From IMG/VR virus record IMGVR_UViG_637000264_000001: DNA of 15,993 bases; one strand, written 5' to 3'. Position 1 is the first letter of the stretch. Each line of letters begins with the position of its first letter. The notes beneath the pieces are model-generated. The model had not been told where the DNA came from. It worked only from the letters and a program-made list of their open reading frames with translations, and made no database searches. This document shows positions 1 through 15,612 of the stretch, piece by piece. This DNA comes from a virus. Its lineage: Duplodnaviria > Heunggongvirae > Uroviricota > Caudoviricetes. Both the position numbers and the translations under genes were made by a program.

Positions 1-45
1 GTGATAGTCTTAATACTAGTTTTTAGACTTGTCATTGGAGAACAG

Positions 46-411
46 ATTATTGATGTCTTAGGGCCGGAGAAACGCAGACGGCGTACCACACAGGAAAAGA
101 TCGCAATTGTTCAGCAGAGCTTTGAACCGGGGATGACGGTCTCCCTCGTTGCCCGGCAACATGGTGTAGCAGCCAGCCAGTTATTTCTCTGGCGTAAGCA
201 ATACCAGGAAGGAAGTCTTACTGCTGTGGCCGCCGGAGAACAGGTTGTTCCTGCCTCTGAACTTGCTGCCGCCATGAAGCAGATTAAAGAACTCCAGCGC
301 CTGCTCGGCAAGAAAACGATGGAAAATGAACTCCTCAAAGAAGCCGTTGAATATGGACGGGCAAAAAAGTGGATAGCGCACGCGCCCTTATTGCCCGGGG
401 ATGGGGAGTAA
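46..411 (+). CDS. insC: IS2 transposase OrfA (InsC); expected initiator position reads ATT instead of ATG
   Basis: Translation ...[40 protein letters not shown]... ending PLLPGDGE matches InsC; codon 46..48 is att where InsC (MIDVLGPEK...) needs ATG. The ORF-track start at position 1 is a window-edge artefact. Confidence 0.8.
363..369 (+). promoter_or_regulatory. A6G slippery heptamer (aaaaaag), candidate programmed -1 frameshift site joining insC to insD
   Basis: gcaaaaaagtgg at the insC/insD overlap; IS3-family elements make an OrfAB fusion by -1 slippage on A6G motifs (established knowledge). Confidence 0.7.
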
Positions 412-1274
412 GCTTAGTCAGCCGTTGTCTCCGGGTGTCGCGTGCGCAGTTGCACGTCATTCTCAGACGAACCGATGACTGGATGGATGGCCGCCGCAGT
501 CGTCACACTGATGATACGGATGTGCTTCTCCGTATACACCATGTTATCGGAGAGCTGCCCACGTATGGTTATCGTCGGGTATGGGCGCTGCTTCGCAGAC
601 AGGCAGAACTTGATGGTATGCCTGCGATCAATGCCAAACGTGTTTACCGGATCATGCGCCAGAATGCGCTGTTGCTTGAGCGAAAACCTGCTGTACCGCC
701 ATCGAAACGGGCACATACAGGCAGAGTAGCCGTGAAAGAAAGCAATCAGCGATGGTGCTCTGACGGGTTCGAGTTCTGCTGTGATAACGGAGAGAGACTG
801 CGTGTCACGTTCGCGCTGGACTGCTGTGATCGTGAGGCACTGCACTGGGCGGGGACTACCGGCGGCTTCAACAGTGAAACAGTACAGGACGTCATGCTGG
901 GAGCGGTGGAACGCCGCTTCGGCAACGATCTTCCGTCGTCTCCAGTGGAGTGGCTGACGGATAATGGTTCATGCTACCGGGCTAATGAAACACGCCAGTT
1001 CGCCCGGATGTTGGGACTTGAACCGAAGAACACGGCGGTGCGGAGTCCGGAGAGTAACGGAATAGCAGAGAGCTTCGTGAAAACGATAAAGCGTGACTAC
1101 ATCAGTATCATGCCCAAACCAGACGGGTTAACGGCAGCAAAGAACCTTGCAGAGGCGTTCGAGCATTATAACGAATGGCATCCGCATAGTGCGCTGGGTT
1201 ATCGCTCGCCACGGGAATATCTGCGGCAGCGGGCTTGTAATGGGTTAAGTGATAACAGATGTCTGGAAATATAG
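369..1274 (+). CDS. insD: IS2 transposase OrfB (InsD), DDE integrase-type catalytic domain
   Basis: 301-aa [33 protein letters not shown]...[24 protein letters not shown], overlapping insC in the -1 frame; matches recalled InsD over its whole length. Confidence 0.92.
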
Positions 1275-1333
1275 GGGCAAATCCAGTATAAGCCATTATC
1301 AAACCCACCCGTAGATAGGCTTTGTAATGGCTA

Positions 1334-1623
1334 CTTCTTCAGAAATGATTCGATGAATTCACGTCGAGGATGACGATAGTTCAGAATATCTTCTGGCATC
1401 CTCATAAAGCGGTTGTTGCCGTCTTTGGCAGTAACAAAACAGCTGTGAACTCCGCAGACATCCGTTTTGATCGTGTCGCTATACTCAAAAAGCAACTGAG
1501 CCATCTTCTCTTGCCATTCTGGAGGCATAGCCTCCATGAATACTCGCGGCATCACGCAGAACGACGCATGCGTAAGACCAAACCACAGTTGCAGGTCTTT
1601 ACGATATTCTTCATCCATCGTCT
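1334..1623 (-). pseudogene. Orphan 3' fragment (about 97 codons) of an unidentified gene, trapped between the IS2 right end and the IS911 end
   Basis: Minus-strand frame open from the IS911 boundary to stop at 1331..1333 (...EEYRKDLQLWFGLTHASFCVMPRVFMEAMPPEWQEKMAQLLFEYSDTIKTDVCGVHSCFVTAKDGNNRFMRMPEDILNYRHPRREFIESFLKK). The first 26 codons of track ORF 1331..1702 are IS911 sequence. Family not recognised. Confidence 0.5.
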
Positions 1624-1631
1624 TGAAGTGG

Positions 1632-2801
<1,170 letters not shown>

Positions 2802-2873
2802 TGGAGCACCTGTGTTGTTCTGAGGTGAGCATATCACCTCTGTTCAGGTGGCCAAATTCAGTGTGCCACTTCA

Positions 2874-3914
2874 CCTTTCTTTCCGAACCTTGTTGATCAC
2901 CTTCTGGTTAAGCATCACACGGCTGATGGCGTTGAAGATGGCATTTCAATCTGCTACTTCAAGCCATACTCGCAAGGCCGTGCTCGCTGGCAGGGTGACA
3001 CAATCCACGGCGTGTGGTTTGACGAAGAGCCACCATACAGCATTTATGGCGAAGGTCTTACCCGTACCAACAAATACGGGCAATTCTCAATTCTGACGTT
3101 TACCCCGCTGATGGGGATGTCTGACGTTGTTACCAAGTTCCTGAAGAACCCCAGCAAGTCGCAGAAAGTGGTCAACATGACCATCTATGACGCTGAGCAC
3201 TATACCGACGAGCAGAAAGAGCAAATCATCGCATCATATCCCGAGCATGAGAGAGAGGCGCGTGCTCGCGGTATTCCTACGATGGGTAGTGGTCGAATCT
3301 TCCAGATACCGGAAGAGACGATTAAGTGTCAGCCGTTCGAGTGTCCTGATCACTTCTACGTAATTGGCGGGATGGATTTCGGATGGGATCACCCACAGGC
3401 GCAAGTTCAGCTTTGGTGGGATAAGGAGGCAGACACAATCTACGTTTCACGCGTGTGGAAGGCGAAAGAAAAAACAGCCGTTCAGGCGTGGGGAGCCGTT
3501 AAATCATGGGCGCATAAAGTGCCAACCGCATGGCCTCATGATGGAAACCAGCACGAGAAGGGCGGCGGTGAGCAGCTCAAAGGGCAGTATGCAGACGCTG
3601 GATTTATGATGTTGCAGGAGCATGCGACATGGCCTGATGGCGGTAACGCTGTTGAGCCAGGCATCACTGAATTGCGCGACATGATGCTCGATGGTCGCTT
3701 CAAAGTATTCAATACCTGTGAGCCATTCTTTGAGGAGTTCCGCCTCTATCACCGTGATGAAAACGGGAAAATCGTCAAGCTTAACGACGACGTGCTATCC
3801 GCCGTTCGCTATGCATACATGATGCGCCGCTTCGCAAAAATGATGCGCGACATCAAAAAACCAAAAGAGAAAAAGATACCAGCCCCAATCAGGCCCATCG
3901 CACGGAGAACTTAA
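2874..3914 (+). pseudogene. Terminase large subunit, 5'-truncated by IS911 (about 347 C-terminal codons remain: Walker B onward plus nuclease domain)
   Basis: Frame open from the IS911 boundary: ...GDTIHGVWFDEEPPYSIYGEG... (Walker-B-like hhhDEE), later HFYVIGGMDFGWDHP and KLNDDVLSAVRYAYMMRR typical of terminase nuclease domains; stop 3912..3914 abuts the portal ATG. No Walker A segment in the window. Confidence 0.8.
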
Positions 3915-6080
3915 ATGGCCGACGAAAACAGACTCAATTCCATTCTGTGTAAGTTTGACGCAGACTGGATGGCGAGCGATGAAGCCAGAACCGAGGCGAC
4001 AAATGACCTGTATTTTAGCCGAGTGTCGCAATGGGATGACTGGCTATCAAACTACACTACCCTGCAATATCGCGGACAATTCGATGTTGTTCGCCCGGAG
4101 GTCAGGAAACTGGTCGCAGAGATGCGCCGGAACCCTGTCGACGTTCTCTTCCGACCCAAAGACGGCGCTAATCCTGATGCAGCCGATGTATTGATGGGGA
4201 TGTATCGTACTGATATGCGCCATAACACGGCAAAGATTGCCGTTAACGTTGGCGTTCGTGAGCAGATAGAGTCAGGCGTTGGTGCATGGCGTCTGGTCAC
4301 GCAGTACGAAGACAACGATCCAACAAGCAACAATCAGGTAATCCGACGCCTGCCAATCCATGAAGCCTGCTCACACGTCATATGGGACGCCAACAGCAAG
4401 CAGATGGATAAGAGCGACGCTAAGCACTGCACGGTGATTAACGCCTTGTCGCGCAATGGCTGGAAAGAGTTCGCAGAGGATTACGGTATTGACCCGGATA
4501 CCCTGCCATCTTTCCAGAATCCTAACGATACATGGCTATTCCCGTGGGTGTCGAATGATGTCGTCTACGTCGCTGAGTATTACGAGGTAGAAGAGGAGAA
4601 GGAGAAGGTCTTCATCTACCGCGACCCGCTGACAGGTGAGCCGGTCAGCTATTACCAGCAGGATATCAAAGACGTCATCGACGACCTGGCTAATCGTGGA
4701 TTCATTAAGGTAGCAGAGCGCAAGGTGAAGCGTCGGCGTGTGTATAAGTCGATCATCACCTGTACGCAGATACTGAAAGACCGCGAGAAGATAGCCGGAG
4801 AGCATATTCCAATCGTTCCAGTGTATGGCGAATGGTCATTCGCTGGTGACAAGGAGTGCTACGAGGGTGTGGTAAGGCTGACGAAAGACGGTCAACGCCT
4901 TCGTAACATGATTATGTCGTTCAACGCCGATATTGTTGCTCGGTCACCGAAGAAGAAACCGACCTTCTTCCCTGAGCAAATCGAAGGCTACGAATACATG
5001 TACGGCGGAAATGATGACTATCCGTACTATCTGCAGAACAGGACTGATGAAAACGGTAACGACCTGCCGATTGGTCCAATCTCCTACATGGAAAACCCTG
5101 AAGTGCCGCAAGCCAACGCTTACATGCTTGAGGCTGCCACCAACGCAGTGAAAGAAGTGGCTAGTCTTGGCGTGGATGCGCAGGCGGCAAATGGTCAGGT
5201 CGCTTTTGATACCGTCAATCAACTGAACATGCGGGCAGACCTTGAGACATACGTGTTTCAGGATAACCTGGCTACCGCAATGCGACGTGATGGCGAGATT
5301 TATGCCTCAATGGTCAACGATATTTATGACGTTCCTCGTCATGTAACGCTGACACTTGAAGATGGAAGCGAGAAAGACGTTCAACTCTATGCGCAAGTTG
5401 TCGATTACCAGTCCGGCAATGTGGTCACACTCAACGACATTCGCGGTCGATATGAGTGCTATACAGACGTTGGGCCATCCTTCCAGAGTATGAAGGAACA
5501 GAACCGCGCAGAGATTCAGGAGTTGCTCACCAAGGTTCCGCAAGGTACTCCAGAGTTCCAGATGCTGATGCTGCAATACTTCACGCTGCTTGACGGTAAA
5601 GGCGTCGAGATGATGCGAGAGTACGCGAACAAGCAACTGGTGATGATGGGGCTGAAGAAACCAGAAACACCTGAAGAGATGGAGATGGTGCAGCAGGCAC
5701 AACAACAGCCGCAGCAGCCATCAGCAGAGCAAATTCAGGCGCAGGGTATCCTTCTGCAAGGTCAGGCTGAATTGCTCAAGGCAGAGAACCAACAGGCGCA
5801 GATTCAGGTTGAAGCTGCCAAGGTTGAAGCCCAAAACCAACTCAACGCCGCGAAGATTGCAGAAATATTCAACAATATGGACCTCGACAAGCAGGCAGAA
5901 CTGCGTGAGTACCTCAGGCTCGTAGGTCAATTCCAGCAACAGCGCAGCAAAGATGCTCGTGCTAACGCTGAGCTGCTTCTTAAAGATGCAGACCAGACTC
6001 ATTCACAACGCATGGATTTCGCGAATCTTATGCGTCAAGTTCAAATCCCCTCCGGCGGAGTAGCCGAGACACCTCAATAA
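3915..6080 (+). CDS. Portal protein (P22 gp1-like, 721 aa)
   Basis: Full-length ORF; near-collinear similarity to P22 portal as I recall it ([11 protein letters not shown]...[15 protein letters not shown]...[15 protein letters not shown]...[23 protein letters not shown]...), with the Gln-rich helical C-terminus. Confidence 0.95.
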
Positions 6081-6093
6081 GAGAGAGTTAATC

Positions 6094-7005
6094 ATGGACC
6101 AAACCACCGACATTCAGGCTTCTGAAGAATTAACCCTGCCCGGCAATCATGCAGCGGCATCTGCTGATGGCTTAGTTGTCGATAATGCCAACGACAGCGC
6201 AGGTCAGGAAGAAGGCTTTGAGATTGTCCGGAAAGACGATGAGAAACCAAAACAAGACCCGGCAACTAATGCTGAATTTGCCCGTCGCCGCATCGAACGC
6301 AAACGCCAGCGTGAGCTTGAGCAGCAGATGGAAGCGGTTAAGCGTGGAGAGTTGCCGGAGCACCTGCGGGTGAACCCTGAGTTACCAAAACAACCAGACC
6401 CTAACGATTATCTTTCCGAAGATGCACTGGCTAAGTACGACTATGACCAGAGCCGCGCACTGGCTGCCTTCCAGCAGGCAAACAGTGAATGGCAGATCAA
6501 GGCTATGGACGCACGAAGCCAGGCTGTCGCCGAGCAGGGTCGCAAAACTCAGGAGTTCACCCAGCAATCAGCGCAATACGTCGAGGCGGCCCGTAAGCAC
6601 TACGAGGCAGCGGAAAAGCTCAATATCCCTGACTATCAGGAGAAAGAGGATGCATTCATGCAACTGGTGCCGCCAGCAGTCGGTGCCGACATCATGCGCC
6701 TCTTCCCGGAGAAATCCGCCGCTCTCATGTATCACCTTGGTGCTAATCCTGAGAAAACACGCCAGTTGCTGGCGATGGACGGGCAATCCGCGCTGATTGA
6801 ACTCACTCGACTGTCAGAACGTTTAACTCTCAAGCCTCGAGCCAAGCCTGTTTCAGAAGCCCCGTTACCTGATGAACCCATTCAGGGACATGCTGTTGCT
6901 GCAAATATCTCTGCGATTGAAAAGCAGATGGAGGCGGCAGCAAACAAAGGGGATGTAGAGACGTACCGCAAGCTCAAGGCGCAACTGAATAAAGGAATTC
7001 GATAA
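6094..7005 (+). CDS. Scaffolding protein (P22 gp8-like, 303 aa)
   Basis: Position between portal and coat; same length as P22 scaffold; sequence ...[49 protein letters not shown]...[18 protein letters not shown]; RBS gagag upstream. Confidence 0.9.
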
Positions 7006-8300
7006 TGGCATTAAATGAAGGTCAACTGGTCACGTATGCTCTGGATGAAATCATCGGAACCGTCCAGAACCTGACGCCAATGGCGTCAAAAGTGACAAAA
7101 TACCCCCCTCCGGCAGAATCCATGCAGCGTTCAAGCAACACCGTGTGGATGCCTGTTGAGCAGGAAGCGCCAACCCAGACTGGCTGGGATTTAACTGGCA
7201 ACGCAACCGGGATTCTGGAACTCTCCGTGAAGTGCAACATGGGCGATCCGGATAACGATTTCTTCGAGCTTCGTGCAGATGACCTGCGTGATGAGCGTTC
7301 TTACCGTCGCCGCATCCAGGCATCCGCCAAAAAACTGGCGAATAACATTGAGTCAGCGATTGCCAAACAGGCAACTGAAATGGGCTCGCTTGTTGTTCAC
7401 GATACCCGCGCAATTGGTCCATCGACTGGCCTGCCTGGCTGGGATTTTGTGTCTGATGCAGAGCGACTGATGTTCTCCCGTGAGCTAAACCGCGACATGG
7501 GCATCAGTTACTTCCTGAACCCTGACGATTACCGCAAAGCAGGCCGCAACCTGGTAGATGGTGACATCTTCGGGCGCGTTCCTGAAGAAGCATATCGAAA
7601 CGGTACTATTCAGCGTCAGATTGCTGGCTTTGATGAAATTCTTCGCTCACCGAAACTTCCGGCAGTTACCAAGTCAACCGCGACTGGTGTAACTGTTTCT
7701 GGTGCGCAGAAGTTTAAGCCGCAGGCATACACCCTTGATACCGATGGTAACAAAGAGAACGTCGACAACCGTGTTGCAACGGTGACCGTATCCTCCACCA
7801 CCGGATTTAAGCGCGGCGACAAAATCAGCTTCATTGGTGTGAAGTTCCTGTCTCAGATGGCGAAGAATGTGCTGACTGATGACGCGACTTTCTCAATCAC
7901 CCGTGTGATCGATGGTACTCACATCGAAATCACGCCGAAGCCGATTGCGCTGGATGACGCGTCACTGACAAAAGAAGAGAAGGCTTACGCTAACGTAAAC
8001 ACCTCTCTTGCTGATACCACTCCGGTAAACGTTCTGAACGTGGCAACAACCACCGCTAACGTGTTCTGGGCTGATGACTCAATCCGCCTGCTGTCTCAGC
8101 CGATCCCGGTAACCCATGAACTGTTTGCTGGCATGAAAACGTCTTCCTTCAGCATTCCAGGTATTGGTGTTAACGGCATCTTCGCAACGCAGGGTGATAT
8201 CAACACTCTGTCTGGTAAGTGCCGTATTGCTGTGTGGTATTCAGCATGTGCTGTACGACCAGAGGCAATTGGTGTTGGTCTGCCTAACCAGACCGCGTGA
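7005..8300 (+). CDS. Major capsid (coat) protein (P22 gp5-like, 431 aa)
   Basis: [10 protein letters not shown]...[23 protein letters not shown]...[29 protein letters not shown]... closely matches P22 coat; start overlaps scaffold stop (taatg). Confidence 0.95.
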
Positions 8301-8306
8301 TAACCA

Positions 8307-8331
8307 GAGGGAGCTTCGGCTCCCGTTTTTA
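8307..8331 (+). terminator. Rho-independent terminator-like hairpin directly after the coat gene
   Basis: gggagc-ttcg-gctccc (6-bp GC-rich stem 8309..8314 / 8319..8324, TTCG tetraloop) followed by gttttta. Confidence 0.7.
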
Positions 8332-8344
8332 TCTGGAGACAAGC

Positions 8345-8575
8345 ATGACACACATGATCTTTCGTCATGGCGACATGAAGAAGTGGAAAGGCGTTGGCTA
8401 CGACTTTGAAATCGTGAAAGCCGAAGAGCTTCAGGAATATCTGGATGCTGGCTGGTTTTCACATCCTGATGACCTTTTGAAGGATGTTGCAGAGCCAGAG
8501 CCAGAAGAAAAACAGCGTAAAAAGCCTGGTCGAAAACCTAAGGCGGCAGCAGATGAACCTGACAACGAAGGGTGA
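8345..8575 (+). CDS. Small hypothetical protein (76 aa) between coat and gp4-like genes
   Basis: ATG at 8345 with ggaga 7 nt upstream; [76 protein letters not shown]; 3' end overlaps the next gene start by 23 nt. No family recognised. Confidence 0.6.
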
Positions 8576-9053
8576 TTTAGTTCTTGCGGCATTACGTAAG
8601 CTCGGTGTTGCATCAAATGCCACGTTAACCGATGTCGAACCGCAGTCTATGGAAGACGGCGTCAACGACCTTGAAATGATGATGGCTGAATGGCTTGGCG
8701 GTGATGCGTCACCTGGTATCAACGTTGGCTACATTTTTGCTGATGCAGATGTTGCTCCGGATCCGGGCGATGAGCACGGTTTATCAAATAACGCTATCAA
8801 TGCCGTCATTTTCAACCTTGCCTGCCGAATTGCTCCAGATTATGCGCTGGAAGCGTCTGCAAAACTTATAACCACTGCCAGATACGGGAAAGAGCGACTC
8901 GTCAAACTGTCTGCAATGGACAGGGCAAAAGCAGCTAAATGTAAGTCCGGTTATCCAAACCGTATGCCTGTTGGTAGTGGTAACCAGTTGGCGAAGTGGA
9001 ATGGTTGGAATTACTTCCACCGAAAGGAACCTTGCGATAACGGGAGCGAATAA
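8553..9053 (+). CDS. Head-completion / tail-accessory protein (P22 gp4-like, 166 aa)
   Basis: [47 protein letters not shown]...[14 protein letters not shown]... resembles P22 gp4 and has the same length; the track ORF from 8484 is an upstream in-frame extension. Confidence 0.85.
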
Positions 9054-10471
9054 TGCCTATTCAGCAACTTCCGCTTATGAAAGGTGTCGGCAAAGACTTC
9101 CGAAACGCCGACTATATCGACTATCTGCCAGTGAATATGCTGGCTACACCCAAAGAAATCCTGAACAGCAGCGGATATCTTCGCTCATTCCCGGGCATTG
9201 CCAAACGTTCTGACGTGAACGGTGTATCTCGCGGCGTCGAGTACAACATGGCGCAGAATGCTGTTTATCGCGTGTGTGGCGGCAAGCTGTACAAAGGAGA
9301 AAGTGAAGTCGGTGATGTTGCCGGAAGTGGTCGTGTATCAATGGCGCATGGTCGGACATCACAGGCGGTAGGCGTTAATGGTCAACTGGTCGAGTATCGC
9401 TATGATGGCACGGTCAAAACCGTCTCAAACTGGCCTACAGACAGTGGATTCACTCAGTATGAGTTAGGTTCAGTTCGCGACATTACGCGCTTACGTGGGC
9501 GTTATGCGTGGTCAAAAGACGGAACTGATTCATGGTTTATCACTGACCTTGAAGACGAATCTCATCCTGACCGTTACAGCGCACAATATCGTGCCGAGTC
9601 TCAGCCTGACGGCATCATCGGTATCGGGACATGGCGAGACTTCATCGTCTGCTTTGGTTCATCGACTATTGAATATTTCTCCCTGACTGGCGCAACCACC
9701 GTTGGTGCCGCTTTGTATGTTGCACAACCATCGCTGATGGTGCAGAAAGGCATTGCCGGAACTTACTGCAAAACGCCATTCGCTGATTCGTATGCGTTTA
9801 TCAGCAATCCGGCAACGGGTGCGCCGTCTGTGTATATCATCGACTCCGGTCAGGTGTCACCAATTGCCAGCGCGAGCATTGAGAAAATCCTCCGCTCCTA
9901 CACTGCTGATGAACTGGCTGATGGTGTGATGGAATCGCTGCGATTTGATGCTCATGAGTTGCTGATTATCCACCTTCCGCGTCACGTCCTCGTGTACGAC
10001 GCATCTTCAATCGCCAATGGCCCACAATGGTGTGTGCTGAAAACAGGTCTGTATGACGATGTGTACCGCGCTATCGACTTCGTTTACGAAGGCAATCAGA
10101 TAACGTGCGGCGATAAGCTGGAATCTGTTACCGGGAAACTGCAATTCGATATCAGCAGCCAGTACGACAAGCAACAGGAACACCTGCTGTTTACTCCACT
10201 CTTCAAAGCGGATAACGCCAGAGTGTTCGACCTTGAGGTTGAATCGTCAACTGGCGTTGCGCAGTACGCCGACCGCCTTTTTCTCTCTGCAACCACTGAC
10301 TGCATCAATTACGGGCGTGAGCAGATGATTGAGCAGAATGAACCGTTCGTTTACGACAAGCGTGTTTTGTGGAAGCGAGTAGGGCGCATCAGGAAAAATG
10401 TCGGCTTCAAATTGCGCGTTATCACGAAGTCACCTGTCACTCTGTCTGGCGCTCAGATAAGGATTGAGTAA
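9053..10471 (+). CDS. Tail-accessory protein (P22 gp10-like, 472 aa)
   Basis: [49 protein letters not shown]... strong collinear match to P22 gp10, same length; taatg overlap with upstream gene. Confidence 0.9.
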
Positions 10472-11319
10472 TGGCTGATTCGAATCTCAATGTGCCGGTA
10501 ATCATCCAAGCTACGCGGCTCGATACATCAGTCCTTCCACGCAATATCTTCTCGCAGTCGTATCTGCTTTACGTTATCGCACAGGGCACTGATGTTGGTA
10601 ACGTGGCTAACAAAGCCAACGAGGCCGGACAGGGCGCTTATGATGCACAGGTCAGGAACGATGAGCAGGATGTGATTCTCGCTGACCATGAGCAGCGAAT
10701 TTCTGCTGCGGAAGCAACGCTTGTTAATCATGAGGAGCGAATCAGACAGGCAGAATCAACTCTTCAGGACCATGAAACACGAATAGCTCAGAATGAAAGC
10801 GATATTTCGTCGCTTGACACAAGAGTTCAGTCGCTGGAGTCGCAGGTTTCAGACCATGAAACGCGCATCGATGCTCTGGAGTATGCAACCACACGCAAGA
10901 AGTCAGAGGTTGTTTACTCTGGTGTATCTGTAACCATCCCGACAGCGCCGACCAACCTTGTTAGCCTGCTGAAAACGCTCACACCGTCATCCGGCTCGTT
11001 GGCACCATTCTTCGACACCGTTAACAACAAGATGGTTGTGTTCAACGAGAACAAAACCCTGCTCTTCAAGTTGTCGATTGTCGGCACGTGGCCCAGCGGA
11101 ACCGCCAACAGGTCAATGCAGCTAACCTTTTCCGGCTCTGTTCCTGACACACTGGTCAGCAGTCGTAATGCGGCGACAACAACCGACAACATCCTGTTAG
11201 CTACGTTCTTCAGCGTGGATAAAGACGGCTTTCTTGCCACAAATGGCAGTACGTTAACCATTCAGTCGAATGGTGCGGCGTTTACTGCCACAACCATCAA
11301 GATAATCGCGGAGCAGTGA
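10471..11319 (+). CDS. Tail needle protein (P22 gp26 family) with C-terminal knob domain (Sf6/HK620 type, 282 aa)
   Basis: N-terminus [43 protein letters not shown] matches gp26; central heptad-repeat coiled coil; C-terminal ~140 aa non-helical Ser/Thr-rich extension. Confidence 0.85.
10684..10880 (+). repeat. Tandem ~42-nt (14-codon) periodic repeats encoding DHExRI-type coiled-coil units within the tail needle gene
   Basis: gaccatgagcagcgaat (10684), aatcatgaggagcgaat (10726), gaccatgaaacacgaat (10768), gaccatgaaacgcgcat (10851); protein [67 protein letters not shown]. Confidence 0.7.
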
Positions 11320-11774
11320 TGATTACATTCAAACCAACGCGAAACATCGACCTGATAGAAGCAGTCGGAAATCACCCTGACATTATCGCCGGGAGCAACA
11401 ACGGTGATGGATACGACTACAAACCTGAATGCCGTTACTTTGAGGTGAACGTGCACGGTCAGTTTGGCGGCATTGTTTACTATCAGGAGATTCAGCCGCT
11501 GACATTAGATTGCCACGCCATGTACCTGCCAGAGATTCGCGGCTTCAGCAAGGAAATTGGGCTGGCGTTCTGGCGATACATTCTGACTAACACCACCGTT
11601 CAGTGCGTAACATCGTTCGCTGCACGCAAATTCCGACACGGTCAGATGTACTGCGCAATGATTGGCCTTAAGCGTGTAGGAACCATCAAGAAATACTTCA
11701 AAGGCGTGGATGACGTGACTTTTTACAGCGCCACACGCGAAGAACTAATCGACTTCCTGAATCACGGGAGATAG
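11319..11774 (+). CDS. P22 gp14-like virion assembly protein (151 aa)
   Basis: [23 protein letters not shown]...YDYKPECRYFEVNVHGQFGGIVYY...; ATG at 11319 overlaps the tail needle stop (gtgatga); the track start at 11316 is GTG one codon upstream. Confidence 0.8.
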   Translation: MITFKPTRNIDLIEAVGNHPDIIAGSNNGDGYDYKPECRYFEVNVHGQFGGIVYYQEIQPLTLDCHAMYLPEIRGFSKEIGLAFWRYILTNTTVQCVTSFAARKFRHGQMYCAMIGLKRVGTIKKYFKGVDDVTFYSATREELIDFLNHGR

Positions 11775-11776
11775 CC

Positions 11777-12469
11777 ATGTTATATGCATTTAAGCTGGGC
11801 AGAAAACTGCGCGGCGAGGAACCTTATTGCCCTGAAAAAGGCGGGAAAGGTGGCAGTTCTGATAAAAGCGCAAAGTATGCAGCAGAAGCCCAGAAGTATG
11901 CTGCAGACCTGCAAAATCAGCAGTGGCAGACGATCATGAAAAACCTTGCTCCGTTCACGCCTCTTGCGGAGCAGTATGTTAACCAGCTTCAGAACCTTTC
12001 CAGTTTAGAAGGTCAGGGGCAGGCACTTAATCAGTATTACAACTCTAAGCAGTATAAAGACCTTGCAGGGCAGGCGCGTTACCAGAGTCTTGCTGCTGCG
12101 GAGGCGACGGGTGGACTTGGTTCGACAGCCACAAGCAATCAACTGGCTACGATCGCGCCGACACTCGGTCAGTCTTGGTTATCAAATCAGATGAGCAATT
12201 ACAACAATCTGGCAAACGTTGGGCTTGGTGCGCTGCAAGGTCAGGCAAACGCCGGGCAGACGTACGCCAACAACATGAGCAGCATTGCACAGCAAAGCGC
12301 AGCTCTTGCCGCTGCTAATGCCAATAAACCATCAAGTCTTCAGACTGCAATTAGCGGTGGCACGTCTGGTGCGATTGCCGGTGCAGGTCTTGCCAGCCTT
12401 TTGGGAACATCAACGCCTTGGGGCGCTGGTATTGGTGCTGGTATCGGATTGCTTGGCTCGTTGTTTTAA
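11777..12469 (+). CDS. Ejection (injection) protein, P22 gp7-like (230 aa)
   Basis: Position after gp14-like; Gln/Asn/Ala-rich with Gly/Ala-rich hydrophobic C-terminus (GAIAGAGLASLLGTSTPWGAGIGAGIGLLGSLF). Confidence 0.75.
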   Translation: MLYAFKLGRKLRGEEPYCPEKGGKGGSSDKSAKYAAEAQKYAADLQNQQWQTIMKNLAPFTPLAEQYVNQLQNLSSLEGQGQALNQYYNSKQYKDLAGQARYQSLAAAEATGGLGSTATSNQLATIAPTLGQSWLSNQMSNYNNLANVGLGALQGQANAGQTYANNMSSIAQQSAALAAANANKPSSLQTAISGGTSGAIAGAGLASLLGTSTPWGAGIGAGIGLLGSLF

Positions 12470-12478
12470 GGGGGAATC

Positions 12479-13810
12479 ATGGCTACTTGGCAAGGAACAA
12501 ACGGCGGATTGTTGGCTGGTATCGGCGGCGTCAACTCAAACGCTCCGAGCGTAAATGACATCGGCAATACGCTTCAGCTTATCAGGCAGAACAATGATAT
12601 TGAGCGTTCAGGCGCTAACAATGTTGGGCTGACTGCTTTGCAAGGTCTTTCAGGTATTGCGGGTGTTTTTCAGCAGGAAAAGCAGGCTCAGCGGCAGAAA
12701 GAATTTCAGCAGGCGTACGCTAATGCTTATGCGTCTGGTGATCGCGGTGCTTTGCGTCAGTTGGCTACTCAATATCCAGACCAGATTGAATCCGTTCGTA
12801 AAGGCATGGGATTCATTGATGAAGAGCAGCGTAATTCTATCGGCACCTTAGCGGCTGGCGCACGCCTTGCGTCATCGTCTCCAGAAGCAATGCAATCATG
12901 GCTGCAAAACAACGCCGGTGAGTTAGCTCGTGTTGGCGTTAATCCTCATGACGTCGCTCAGATGTACCAACAGAACCCGCGGCAGTTCGGCGAATTTGTC
13001 GATCACCTGGGGATGAACAGTCTCGGGCCCGAAAAATACTTTGACCTACAGGATAAAATGCAGGGTCGCCAGGTTACCATGCGCGGTCAGGATCTGGATT
13101 CGCAAACCGCCGCTCGGAATCAGGCAATCACAATGCGCGGACAAGATATCCAGGCGAATTTAGGTCAGCAGCGCATTAATCTGGACGCAGAAACAAACCG
13201 CATTAACAACGAAAATAAGCGCCTTGACCGGATGCTATCAGCAGAAACTAACGACCTGAAGCGCCAGGAAATACAGAGCCGCATAGCAGCCAACAACCAG
13301 CAGTTGCAGCAGAAGCAGCAAGCGCTAAATGATGGCTACAAAGACGGCATCAACACCCTCACAACCAGCATGTTCACTCTGAACGATATCGTTAGTTCTC
13401 CTTCACTTAAGAGCATTACAGGCTTACGTGGAGTAATCCCCAACGTTCCAGGCTCACAGGCTGCAGACACTCAGGCACGACTTGATACCTTTAAATCACA
13501 AGCATACCTGACAGCGGTTCAGGCCATGCGAGGCATGGGCGCACTTTCTGATGCCGAGGGCAAAAAGCTCGACCAGGCTGTTGGTTCGCTGCAGAACTCG
13601 CAGAGCGAGGAGTCCTTTCGTCGCAACGCTGGCGTCATCCTGAACACGCTCAACCAGAAGCGTAATGAGGCGGTTGGTAAGTACGTTCAGCAAAACGGTA
13701 TCAAGCGAGTGGAAGCGCCTCAGGCTTCTATAGATTACCTGAAGCAGCACCCCGAGCTGTCAATCGACTTCATTAATCGCTACGGATATCTTCCATCTTT
13801 GGGGCAGTAA
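12479..13810 (+). CDS. Ejection protein, P22 gp20-like (443 aa)
   Basis: Synteny; Gln-rich predicted coiled-coil protein with internal repeat VTMRGQDLD / ITMRGQDIQ; RBS aaggggg upstream. Confidence 0.75.
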   Translation: MATWQGTNGGLLAGIGGVNSNAPSVNDIGNTLQLIRQNNDIERSGANNVGLTALQGLSGIAGVFQQEKQAQRQKEFQQAYANAYASGDRGALRQLATQYPDQIESVRKGMGFIDEEQRNSIGTLAAGARLASSSPEAMQSWLQNNAGELARVGVNPHDVAQMYQQNPRQFGEFVDHLGMNSLGPEKYFDLQDKMQGRQVTMRGQDLDSQTAARNQAITMRGQDIQANLGQQRINLDAETNRINNENKRLDRMLSAETNDLKRQEIQSRIAANNQQLQQKQQALNDGYKDGINTLTTSMFTLNDIVSSPSLKSITGLRGVIPNVPGSQAADTQARLDTFKSQAYLTAVQAMRGMGALSDAEGKKLDQAVGSLQNSQSEESFRRNAGVILNTLNQKRNEAVGKYVQQNGIKRVEAPQASIDYLKQHPELSIDFINRYGYLPSLGQ

Positions 13811-15541
13811 ATGGCTAATTACCGTGATTTGTTAGAGCAGGCTGGCGCACGTTACGGTGTGCCAGAAGGGTTGATGACTGCACTGGGTGCCAAGGAGTCT
13901 TCTTACAACCCTGCCGCAGTAAGCTCCGCCGGGGCTGTAGGATTGACTCAGGTCATGCCTGGGACATGGCGTGATATGGGTTATACCGATGAGCAAATGC
14001 AAAACCCCGAATATCAGGCTGACGCTGGCGCGCGCTATCTGGCAAAGATGTACCAGCAGTTTGGTAACTGGCGTGACTCTCTTCAGGCTTATCACGACGG
14101 TCCCGGCAACGTTATGAAGGCAAAGCGTGGTGAATATACGCCAGGACCTGAAGGCCGCGGTTACGTTGATGATCGCTTTGCTCAATGGGCTGGTGACCCG
14201 GTGACAGACTCAACAGTCGAACAGCGCGCCACCTCTGCAAAGGTACATCCTCAGCAAGACCCTAACAACCCGTTTGCACAACTGGAAGTACAGTCATCCG
14301 AACAAGTATCGGCATCAGGTGTGCAGTCAGACCCAAATAATCCATTTGCTCAGATTGAGCAGCAGGCAGCCAGTCAGCAGCCACCTCAACCCGTAAGTTC
14401 TGTCGCACCGAAACCTGTTCAGCAACAAACAGTTAATCAGGCCAATAATGCACCAACACGGGAAGAACCATCATTGATGCAACAAGCTGGCGATTGGCTC
14501 ACTGGTGGTCAAAGTGCAGGGCAAATTGCAGAACAGGCTGGTCGTGGTCTGGTAAACATACCATTTGACGTATTGCAGGGTGGCGCAAGTCTGATTAATG
14601 CAATCAGTCAGGGGCTTGGGGGGCCAAAAGTATTGGATGATGTTTATCGTCCAGTAGACAGACCGACAGACCCCTACGCGCAAGCTGGAGAGTCAATAGG
14701 CGGTTATCTTGTTCCTGGAGCAGGTGTAGCTGGAAACATGGTCATTGGTTCTCTCGCTGACGCGGCGAATCAACGGGGTGATTTTGCCGAAAATGCCGCT
14801 ATTAATGCCGGACTTAGCATTGCTACGCATGGCCTGATAAATGGCGTTACCCGTGGTGTTCGTGGTGCATCAAATATAATTAGTGGCAATAAAACATCTG
14901 CACAGAGAGCGACCACTGCGCCAACAGAAACATCACCATTCTCCGGTGATGCCGCTGCAGCAACAAATCCTGCGGTTCATGCCGCAGAGGCAAGAGTAGC
15001 ACAAGGTGTACCAATGACGCCTGCGACGAAGAACCCAGAGGAAGTCGTTCGCACAGTAGCAGCACAAAAAAGGCCAAATCTCGCTTCATCGCTTGATGAA
15101 CTAGATATCAATCCTCAGGCTGAAGTTCTGGAGTCTGCTGAAAGGCTTAATGTTGATTCATTACTCCCTTCACACTTTTCCGGGAACGAGCAATACAAGG
15201 CAGTTGAGCAAGCAATCAAGTCCCGTGCGGGTTCTGCTCTACAGGTGCAGGAAAATGAAGCAATCAGGCAGCTAGCACAGGGCGCGGGTGAGATAATTGA
15301 TCGCGTTTCCGGTGCAAAAGATGCTCTTGGTATGAGCGACAAGTTTATTGATACGGTCAATGGAAGAATGTCTGCGCTGATGAAACGAAGCGACCAGCTT
15401 TATCGCAATGTTGAAAAGGCGATGCCTGCAGGTGCAAAAATTGATGCGCCATCAACAAGGTCAATGCTCAAACAGGTGGCAGAAGATCTTGGCGGGATGA
15501 AAAACCTTGACCCTATTGAAAAGAGAGTTGAGGTAGCCTGA
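13811..15541 (+). CDS. Ejection protein (P22 gp16 position) with N-terminal lytic transglycosylase (SLT) domain; the last three codons and stop come from the adjacent IS600 end
   Basis: N-terminus has the SLT signature [28 protein letters not shown] ... AYHDGPGNV; the frame enters the IS600 terminus at 15529 and stops at 15539..15541 (...KRVEVA*), so the native 3' end is probably missing. Confidence 0.8.
14258..14359 (+). repeat. Direct repeat encoding DPNNPFAQ(L/I)E twice, 72 nt apart, in the linker after the SLT domain
   Basis: gaccctaacaacccgtttgcacaactggaa (14258) and gacccaaataatccatttgctcagattgag (14330). Confidence 0.75.
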
Positions 15542-15612
15542 GTTTAACGGACACTCCTTCCTGAAATAGAATGGCATCAGAAGGAGCTAATAATGAGCAG
15601 AAAAACCCAACG
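15529..15612 (+). mobile_element. IS600 left-end fragment (terminal repeat plus first 7 codons of orfA), interrupted by the IS629-type element
   Basis: tgaggtagcctgagtttaacggacactccttcctgaaatagaatggcatcagaaggagctaataATGAGCAGAAAAACCCAACG matches my recollection of the IS600 left end and orfA start (MSRKTQR); continuity then breaks into the IS629 terminus. Confidence 0.6.

Follow-up and report, generated by a model that had tools for sequence, protein, structure and literature searches.

An Sf6-type tail needle gene in a prophage remnant

The stretch of DNA that we analysed (15,993 nt; the window) carries virion genes in the order gp4, gp10, needle, gp14, gp7, gp20, gp16. The needle gene, an orthologue of Sf6 gene 9 and P22 gene 26, lies at 10471..11319 on the + strand, begins with ATG and encodes 282 aa followed by TGA. 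Directly upstream is the homologue of the P22 gp10/Sf6 gp8 tail hub (9053..10471, + strand; 'head closure Hc3', phrog_578, E 3e-228; PF11134 in the annotation of the related locus L001), which in these phages forms the hexameric channel that the needle plugs (PMC9728967, PMC3741392). Directly downstream is a P22 gp14 homologue (11319..11774, + strand; DUF2824, 'head morphogenesis', phrog_651), followed by genes for ejection proteins that resemble gp7 (11777-12469), gp20 (12479-13810) and gp16 (13811-15541, truncated). The needle ORF overlaps both neighbours, at its ATG with the upstream stop codon (TAATG) and at its stop with the downstream start codon (TGATG), and the position between gp10 and gp14 homologues is the one that the gp26 family occupies in its virion-assembly operon.

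By sequence search, the needle gene is 98.3% identical in nucleotides and 98.6% identical in amino acids to Sf6 gene 9. In the alignment the two proteins, both 282 aa, share the tip and shaft, including all DHExRI units, and differ at 4/142 residues of the knob (S176T, L198F, A234S and A270S); these four substitutions are conservative. At least 1000 contigs carry an identical protein, named "tail needle knob protein [Shigella]" in the catalogue, and the needle protein matches both phrog_1030 ('tail needle knob', E 5e-135) and phrog_1219 ('tail needle protein', E 3e-51). We are highly confident that ORF 10471-11319 encodes the tail needle of an Sf6-type P22-like podophage, essentially Sf6 gp9, and this confidence extends to the full account given below of its shaft, of slippage and of its relic status. 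The gene is an ordinary, near-exact copy of a well-studied Sf6 protein and as such already known.

Three antisense ORFs in or beside the needle gene (10914-11261, 10528-10731 and 11262-11456) have no Pfam match and were rejected as spurious. A search of the entire window with Rfam at gathering thresholds gave no match. We met no evidence that contradicts the identification as a needle.

The neighbouring genes are also those of Sf6; in contrast to that viable phage, the needle gene here sits in an IS-truncated remnant with a virion-gene backbone like that of APC_JM3.2 and Dewey. Backbone homology begins at 2871, within the terminase gene, and the prophage remnant runs from there to ~15528 (~12.7 kb). 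Its left side is cut by IS911 and IS2 and its right side by an IS3-family element that starts by 15542, and the large terminase is truncated, as is the gp16 homologue. Because the remnant is bounded by IS elements and lacks an intact terminase and gp16, the needle gene is most likely a silent relic, intact in itself, and probably no virions are built here. Within this backbone, the shaft and knob (aa 75-282; 10692..11316, + strand) form a mosaic cassette that is missing from the phages that best match the backbone: homology to APC_JM3.2 (96-97%) ends at 10691 and restarts at 11317, and Dewey, IME10 and HK620 match just the first ~209-224 nt of the needle gene. The main value of the analysis is correct annotation, namely that an intact Sf6-type needle gene is present in an IS-eroded prophage remnant.

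Domain architecture of the needle

The N-terminal tip domain (aa 1-70; 10471..10680, + strand) is conserved across the family. In alignments, 66/70 of these residues are identical to HK620 gp26 and 55/70 are identical to a P22 gp26, and in a PDB search aa 1-144 match P22 gp26 structures (2POH and others, E ~1e-43 to ~4e-43). The earlier note had called this N-terminus gp26-like, which agrees with these matches. By analogy with gp26-type tips, it would plug the tail-hub channel (PMC9728967, PMC3741392).

The tip is followed by a predicted coiled-coil shaft of 11 heptads (aa 63-140; 10657..10890, + strand), the number reported for the Sf6 needle (PMC3741392). We anchored the register on the NxxQD motif (N = a, Q = d) that was described for P22 gp26 (PMC13580157); the register, and with it the placing of His at d, is inferred from the sequence pattern and the P22 motif, not from an Sf6 shaft structure. 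In this register the a positions read N L I L I L I I V V I and the d positions read Q H A H A H N L L H L, D or E fills every position e, and at position g Arg alternates with another residue. As in gp26-family shafts, uninterrupted heptads with hydrophobic a positions span aa 63-140. AlphaFold predicts one helix over aa 42-140, with pLDDT 85-97 across aa 61-130, which fits the coiled coil proposed in the earlier note.

Within the shaft we found five 14-residue (42-nt) units at 10684..10893 (+ strand), which start at D72, N86, D100, S114 and D128. The four motifs that had been named before are present: DHEQRI (aa 72-77, nt 10684-10701), NHEERI (aa 86-91, nt 10726-10743) and two copies of DHETRI (aa 100-105, nt 10768-10785, and aa 128-133, nt 10852-10869), all on the + strand. 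Their start-to-start spacing is 42, 42 and 84 nt, and a fifth, degenerate unit, SLDTRV (aa 114-119, + strand), sits inside the 84-nt gap. By autocorrelation, the periodicity greatly exceeds chance: over aa 61-141 there are 26 identities at lag 14, compared to 5.2 +/- 2.2 in shuffled sequences (n=2000; z = 9.7), with z = 7.4 at lag 28 and just z = 2.8 at lag 7. At the DNA level, pairs of 42-nt units are identical at 14-26/42 nt (33-62%), the longest exact in-register run shared by units is 11 nt, and Tandem Repeats Finder reported zero arrays in 10300-11500 down to score 30. Since unit identity is too low and no array is reported, the units are not countable as a DNA tandem repeat; the 14-residue repeat is a periodicity of the protein.

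The 14-residue period may be understood as a two-heptad super-repeat in which DHExRI fills positions c-d-e-f-g-a. This placing would put His at the core position d of every second heptad and Ala or Asn at the intervening d positions; Arg would fall at g in alternate heptads, and e would always be acidic.

[quoted passage not shown] PF16532 (Phage_tail_NK) matches aa 108-282 over profile positions 1-175 of 175, with 386.2 bits against a cut-off of 27 (E 2e-116), and in a PDB search aa 130-282 are ~98% identical to the crystal structures 3RWN and 4K6B (E ~1e-88). 3RWN is the Sf6 knob (Bhardwaj et al. 2011, as cited in PMC9728967). A structure prediction points the same way: after the helix, AlphaFold predicts mostly beta strand, and the best PDB fold matches of the model are again 3RWN and 4K6B (E 3e-18, TM 0.75 normalised to target), followed by weak matches to the TNF/C1q family. 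Confidence in the knob of this monomer model, built from a shallow alignment, is moderate (pLDDT 47-87, mean 73), and the assignment of the fold rests more firmly on the 98%-identical crystal structure. The C-terminal 142 residues are 35% Ser/Thr/Asn compared to 21% in the shaft. The earlier note was thus right to propose a Ser/Thr/Asn-rich, non-helical C-terminus that forms an Sf6-type knob rather than a P22 tip; its naming of HK620 as a second knobbed needle was mistaken, as that protein has 233 aa, no PF16532 match and a P22-type tip. The residues that contact L-glutamate (E146, K200, S248, D250, L255 and K277 in Sf6 numbering; PMC3741392) are all six present here and are invariant in a 13-sequence alignment.

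Needle homologues differ by whole shaft units

Among the best 120 of ~2500 homologues we found needles of 268, 282, 296, 303, 310, 317, 331, 338 and 345 aa. The number of units is not invariant, as homologues are 14, 28 or 56 residues apart. The common length classes are 282, 303 and 317 aa (the HS1 type is 317), and clusters of 3620 and 1430 members fall in the 282 and 317 classes. Lengths of 285, 288, 298 and 324 aa do not count as shaft changes; they reflect alternative upstream starts, and the shafts of these needles are as long as in the 282 and 317 classes.

All three indel junctions that could be resolved in DNA sit in DHExRI codons, at microhomologies of 6-11 nt: CATGAG at a 42-nt duplication, AGCGAAT at a 42-nt deletion and GACCATGAAAC at an 84-nt duplication and triplication. 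The 42-nt duplication is in assembly GCA_014273385.1, and the 84-nt duplication and triplication are in GCA_044416865.1 and GCA_025636725.1. The duplicated 42-nt unit, CATGAGCAGCGAATTTCTGCTGCGGAAGCAACGCTTGTTAAT (10687..10728, + strand), is present as an exact tandem duplicate in another S. flexneri isolate, which has a 296-aa variant. The needle gene of locus L001 is identical to ours at 849/849 nt save for the 42-nt insertion, and the two loci agree at 99.96% over 11.1 kb, i.e. it is the same prophage remnant; this indel event is recent and occurred within the same Shigella locus.

A scan of IMG/VR gave 496 relatives, and the best 80 of the 496 are all 282 aa. This uniformity indicates that length changes are uncommon and that 282 aa is a stable length, while these 80 loci say little about the spectrum of variants. 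Events in which shaft units are gained or lost are rare. The DHExRI codons are the most similar stretches between units, and replication slippage or unequal recombination may occasionally take place there; we infer slippage from the junction microhomology in a handful of variants. Gain or loss of whole 14- or 28-residue blocks would keep the heptad phase and make the shaft ~2 or 4 nm longer or shorter. Slippage or recombination at tandem DNA units had been put forward in the earlier note: the location of the junctions in DHExRI codons supports the process, but the units are too diverged to be a tandem DNA repeat and the events are rare.

Variation in heptad number among needle shafts has been published before, with 11 heptads in Sf6 and 16 in HS1 (PMC3741392). 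What we add is modest: shafts change by 14- and 28-residue blocks, and the three resolved junctions lie in DHExRI codons. Such block indels provide a concrete mutational route to the known heptad diversity of P22-like needles and open no new question.

Role in an intact phage and alternative readings

Our picture of the needle in an intact phage draws on the literature for trimer formation, plugging of the hub, the structure of the knob and the kinetics of ejection (PMC3741392, PMC9728967), and the identity, domain architecture, periodicity and natural indel variants with their junctions come from our own observations. By analogy with the 98.6%-identical Sf6 protein, for which a trimeric hub plug that retains DNA is described (PMC9728967, PMC3741392), the needle would form a trimer whose N-terminal ~70 residues plug the hexameric hub and retain the packaged DNA. 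Residues 63-140 would form a parallel three-stranded coiled coil of 11 heptads that reaches past the tailspikes, and residues ~141-282 would place the jelly-roll knob at the distal tip. Upon infection the needle would be released and the channel would open. The tip domain alters the speed of DNA delivery, not the choice of host (PMC3741392).

Could the 14-residue array be a selected, contingency-like length tuner, in which frequent gain and loss of units fits the needle to the length of the tailspike or the thickness of the O-antigen or capsule? Natural homologues do vary in whole shaft units, there are three common length classes, and the 303-aa and 317-aa classes are separated by one 14-residue unit. 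However, a slippage-prone contingency locus consists of head-to-tail DNA copies of high identity, and the unit alignment and Tandem Repeats Finder (minimum score 30) revealed no such copies, which argues against a locus built for hypermutation. Copy-number variants of recent origin occur singly or in small clusters, which, like the single length of the best 80 IMG/VR loci, does not fit frequent change, and one of the duplications, a clean one, occurred in a defective prophage, whose needle is beyond selection. Large insertions and deletions engineered into the shaft were reportedly tolerated in the work of Bhardwaj et al. 2009 (J Mol Biol), which also counts against a tuner. We consider this reading unlikely and favour rare, occasional slippage at the most similar codons. 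A related speculation, to which we give a low probability as a whole, is that the DHExRI unit might be an evolved length ruler, with microhomology in the motif codons limiting slippage to gains and losses of 14 or 28 residues that keep the phase and P22-like phages retuning the reach of the needle against tailspikes or O-antigen, and that the core His at every second d might also make the shaft sense pH or ions during ejection.

A second alternative concerns the knob, which might bind a receptor and thereby determine host range, in the manner of the similar knobs of adenovirus or PRD1. It is located at the distal tip of the virion; PMC3741392 describes the TNF-like fold as common to receptor-binding knobs, and within the P22-like group Sf6-type knobs are restricted to phages of Escherichia and Shigella (PMC3741392). 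Against this, Salmonella is efficiently infected by a chimeric P22 that bears the HS1 knob, virions mutated in the L-Glu site function with no apparent change, P22 can do without its tip domain in the laboratory, and tip changes chiefly slow potassium release (PMC3741392). In addition, Sf6 host recognition is ascribed to the tailspike plus OmpA and OmpC (PMC9728967). A receptor role is largely refuted by these data and we regard it as quite improbable.

It is very improbable that the copy-number variants are artefacts of sequencing or assembly and that the repeat number is really fixed. Most variants do stem from short-read draft assemblies and are represented by few members, and the odd lengths of 309 and 316 aa, which are out of heptad phase, could be errors. 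Yet the repeated blocks of 42-84 nt are below typical read length, and the parental units are too diverged to mislead an assembler. Three separate S. flexneri assemblies carry the 296-aa protein, with P0005 as a second 296-aa sequence, 11 member sequences of E. coli and Shigella origin make up the 268-aa form, and the 309-aa form lies on a 5.03-Mb contig. Moreover, the long-known needles of Sf6 (282 aa) and HS1 (317 aa) are themselves 5 heptads apart (PMC3741392). We treat the natural variation in unit number as real.

The reading that the needle is of the P22/HK620 type, with a triple beta-helix and an inverted coiled-coil tip, is refuted and retains next to no probability: 144-149 residues at the N-terminus can be aligned with the structures of the P22 and HK620 needles, but alignments to 2POH or 5BU5 all stop by ~aa 149, the PDB search and alignments gave no homology to P22 gp26 residues ~141-233 and C-termini unrelated to those of HK620 and Dewey, and PF16532 is absent from the HK620 and Dewey needles, which terminate in ...ALRLHGLID, while the needle here carries a full knob.

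Comparison with other needles

The needle of E. coli prophage HS1 (PDB 4K6B; PMC3741392) resembles the needle here in its N-terminal tip, near-identical knob and DHExRI-type 14-residue units. It differs in its longer shaft, which is just ~67% identical to that of Sf6 (PMC3741392). P22 gp26 (2POH, 3C9I) and HK620 gp26 (5BU5) share the plug with its NDEQD (NxxQD) motif, the first DHExRI heptads and the plug-then-release role; in contrast to the needle here, they end in an unrelated P22-type tip, a class to which epsilon34 also belongs, and lack a PF16532 knob; the HK620 tip has been placed in subtype A of this class (Leavitt et al. 2013, PMC3741392). The number of motifs also differs, with one in HK620 (DHDARI), two in canonical gp26 (DHEARI and DHESRI) and four plus one degenerate motif here. 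Finally, there are knob-only homologues in T4-like, Vi01-like and other phages (such as RB43, Vi01 and Aeromonas phages), whose C-terminal domain is 40-50% identical to aa ~140-268 but which have neither a gp26-type plug nor a DHExRI shaft; the same class of outside knob matches was reported at ~37-63% identity (PMC3741392).

The needle gene and its domains

The tail needle gene of the window (10471-11319, plus strand) is a 282-aa ORF with an ATG start and a TGA stop; its ATG overlaps the upstream stop (TAATG) and its TGA overlaps the downstream start (TGATG). Over its whole length, the gene is 98.3% identical to Sf6 gene 9 at the nucleotide level. The protein differs from Sf6 gp9 at just four residues (98.6% identity; S176T, L198F, A234S and A270S, all within the knob). 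At least 1000 contigs in public collections, one of them a 4.73-Mb chromosome, carry the exact protein, under the name 'MULTISPECIES: tail needle knob protein [Shigella]'. Its PHROGs profile match is 'tail needle knob' (E 5e-135), and a match annotated 'tail needle knob protein' turned up in 914 of 5426 complete E. coli genomes. The needle gene itself is already known. Previous work described two needle-tip types, an Sf6-type knob restricted to Escherichia and Shigella phages (divergence at most 4.9%), its presence in small prophage remnants of over 100 E. coli genomes, and knob-only homologues in T4-like phages (PMC3741392). Our own searches reproduce these published points in E. coli genomes and in knob-only phage matches, which we found at 40-50% identity in RB43-, Vi01- and Aeromonas-type phages.

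The earlier note had proposed a gp26-like N-terminus followed by a coiled coil and a knob, and each of these domains was borne out. Residues 1-144 match P22 gp26 structures (2POH, 3C9I, 4ZKP and others; E ~4e-43) and the HK620 gp26 structure 5BU5 (E 3.5e-42). Against Pfam family PF16532 (Sf6-type phage tail needle knob), aa 108-282 score 386 bits (cut-off 27 bits), and aa 130-282 are ~98% identical to the crystal structures 3RWN (Sf6 knob) and 4K6B (HS1 knob); we found no alignment of the C-terminus to a P22-type tip. In the AlphaFold model, which is of the monomer and has a mean pLDDT of 73, a single long helix (aa 42-140) is followed by a beta-rich domain, and among PDB entries the model matches 3RWN and 4K6B best; weak TNF/C1q-family matches rank below these. 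The six L-glutamate contact residues of the knob are all conserved.

The pairing of this knob with HK620 in the earlier note was wrong: HK620 has no knob, and the correct pairing is Sf6 and HS1. HK620 gp26 (233 aa) has no match to PF16532, its similarity to the window needle is confined to aa 1-148 and, in contrast to the window needle, its C-terminus is P22-type, ending ...ALRLHGLID. Leavitt et al. 2013 (PMC3741392) explicitly classed the HK620 tip as P22-type, subtype A. Phage Dewey (PQ850600.1, L006 1501-2202) carries the label 'tail needle knob', yet it encodes a 233-aa HK620-type needle without PF16532, and this annotation looks like a naming artefact.

What is known of function comes from literature on the nearly identical Sf6 protein (98.6%). 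The N-terminal helical hairpins of Sf6 together make up a quasi-sixfold plug of the hexameric hub (PMC9728967), and the shaft reaches beyond the tailspikes. The knob, TNF-like in fold, binds three L-glutamates, and a P22 chimera with the HS1 knob infected Salmonella efficiently (PMC3741392); thus, host specificity is not determined by the knob. According to the same paper, needle-tip changes slow potassium release (PMC3741392), which suggests that the needle tip affects DNA-delivery kinetics.

A 14-residue repeat in the shaft

All four DHExRI-type motifs that had been listed from sequence are present in the shaft: DHEQRI (aa 72-77), NHEERI (aa 86-91) and two copies of DHETRI (aa 100-105 and 128-133). 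A repeat search of the DNA returned a 23-nt family with four copies spaced 42, 42 and 84 nt apart. The 84-nt gap holds a further, degenerate unit with SLDTRV at aa 114-119, which brings the array to five 14-residue units (aa 72-141; nt 10684-10893). We observed 26 lag-14 identities in the shaft compared to 5.2 ± 2.2 in shuffled sequences (z = 9.7); lag 28 gave z = 7.4 and lag 7 just z = 2.8. The 14-residue periodicity is not due to chance.

We anchored the heptad register on the NxxQD motif (N63-D64-E65-Q66-D67), which in P22 gp26 coordinates calcium with N at a and Q at d (PMC13580157). The shaft then has 11 heptads, in agreement with the number stated for the Sf6 needle (PMC3741392). Position a reads N, L, I, L, I, L, I, I, V, V, I and position d reads Q, H, A, H, A, H, N, L, L, H, L; position e is Asp or Glu throughout, and at position g Arg alternates with another residue. 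In this register, the 14-residue period would be a two-heptad super-repeat with DHExRI at c-d-e-f-g-a, and H73, H87, H101 and H129 would be core histidines at alternate d positions.

Repeat number varies in phase with the heptads

The best 120 homologues have lengths of 268, 282, 296, 303, 310, 317, 331, 338 and 345 aa; two further lengths, 309 and 316 aa, occur once each and are out of phase, and some homologues are longer through artefactual N-terminal extensions. When we counted shaft length from DAQV to YATTRKK, two series appeared, 66, 80, 94, 108 and 136 residues and 101, 115, 129 and 143 residues, both with steps of 14 or 28. Repeat count therefore varies across homologues, in steps of 14, 28 or 56 residues.

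To read the junctions, we aligned the DNA of four variants to the window. A 296-aa variant from another S. flexneri isolate (contig L001) repeats the 42 nt of window 10687-10728 exactly and in tandem (microhomology CATGAG), and a 268-aa variant has a 42-nt deletion that fuses units 1 and 2 (AGCGAAT). In a 310-aa variant, the 84 nt of units 3-4 are duplicated, and in a 338-aa variant the same 84-nt block is triplicated, both with the microhomology GACCATGAAAC. At the DNA level we resolved three distinct types of junction, and all of them lie within DHExRI codons, which are the most similar stretches between units. These junctions may fairly be put down to slippage or unequal recombination between units, and they fit the earlier proposal that tandem units serve as substrates for such events. 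In their DNA, the units themselves have diverged (14-26 of 42 nt in common, longest in-register exact run 11 nt), synonymous codons vary from unit to unit, and Tandem Repeats Finder reported no array in the needle gene DNA.

The 296-aa variant tells the most. Insertion aside, the L001 needle gene is identical to the window gene at 849 of 849 nt, and the locus is 99.96% identical over 11.1 kb, indicating that this other isolate carries the very prophage remnant of the window, with a recent duplication. The 296-aa protein is on record in three assemblies. Copy-number events are rare: the length variants occur singly or in small clusters, among the 282- and 317-aa classes are clusters as large as 3620 and 1430 members, and the best 80 of 496 IMG/VR loci are all 282 aa. 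Variation from 11 to 16 heptads among needles has been published (PMC3741392), and in the needle literature examined we found no statement of recent in-phase 14-, 28- or 56-residue indels with junctions in DHExRI codons; this fine-scale picture is a small refinement of the published variation.

The 309-aa homologue (P0003, on a 5.03-Mb E. coli contig) has a duplication of 27 residues, not 28, which sets the heptad phase off by one residue and should break the continuity of the trimeric coiled coil. This duplication may be real or an error.

The shaft and knob as an exchangeable cassette

The best matches to the rest of the remnant are phages APC_JM3.2, Dewey and IME10 (96-97%), all with 233-aa HK620-type needles. 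Homology to these phages is lost at nt 10691 (codon 74, first DHE motif) and regained at 11317 (stop codon), so shaft and knob (aa 75-282) behave as a cassette that can be exchanged, with its joint where the conserved tip ends. An engineered P22::Sf6 hybrid was fused at codon 69, nearly the same place as this natural break (PMC3741392).

In P22 strain ATCC 19585-B1 (AB426868.1, L008 601-1239), the gene 26 needle is 212 aa long, and its divergent shaft has EHEKRI just once; canonical P22 gp26 (2POH) has 233 aa and both DHEARI and DHESRI. Here too, needle shafts have been replaced between close relatives. On the contig with the 268-aa needle (Logan ERR11477502_295, L002 963-1508), a 181-aa HNH/NUMOD4 homing-endonuclease-like gene separates the gp10 homologue from the needle gene, and a NUMOD4 protein also adjoins the needle start in an E. 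coli genome match. Such an endonuclease could promote exchange of the needle cassette.

The surrounding prophage remnant

The gene order is P22-like (portal, scaffold, coat, gp4, gp10, needle, gp14, gp7, gp20, gp16), and the window is a decayed prophage. On the left are two IS3-family elements, IS2 (about 1-1300, plus strand; ORFs 1-411 and 369-1274) and IS911 (about 1330-2870, minus strand), the latter with a transposase split into ORFs 2499-2837, 2122-2472 and 1632-2207. Adjoining IS911, homology to P22-like phages begins sharply at 2871 within the large-terminase gene, which lacks roughly its first 150 codons compared to APC_JM3.2 (remaining ORF 3012-3914). At the right edge, phage homology stops at 15528 and another IS3-family element extends from at least 15542 (transposase ORF from 15667). 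The ejection protein related to gp16 thus appears truncated: its ORF (13811-15541) encodes 576 aa, including an SLT lytic-transglycosylase domain, and is longer in APC_JM3.2. No tailspike gene lies within the window. The L001 contig spans about window 2877 to 15609 and ends near the IS copies, as expected of a draft assembly breaking there, which lends independent support to the remnant. Although the needle gene is intact, virions are probably not made here, and the 42-nt duplication in L001 therefore reflects mutation, not selection.

For the gp4 homologue (head-tail adaptor, 8484-9053), the longest ORF has 189 aa. The true start is probably an internal ATG near 8553, since the PHROG profile aligned from residue 24 and the call in L001 is 166 aa, with a separate 76-aa ORF just upstream in L001.
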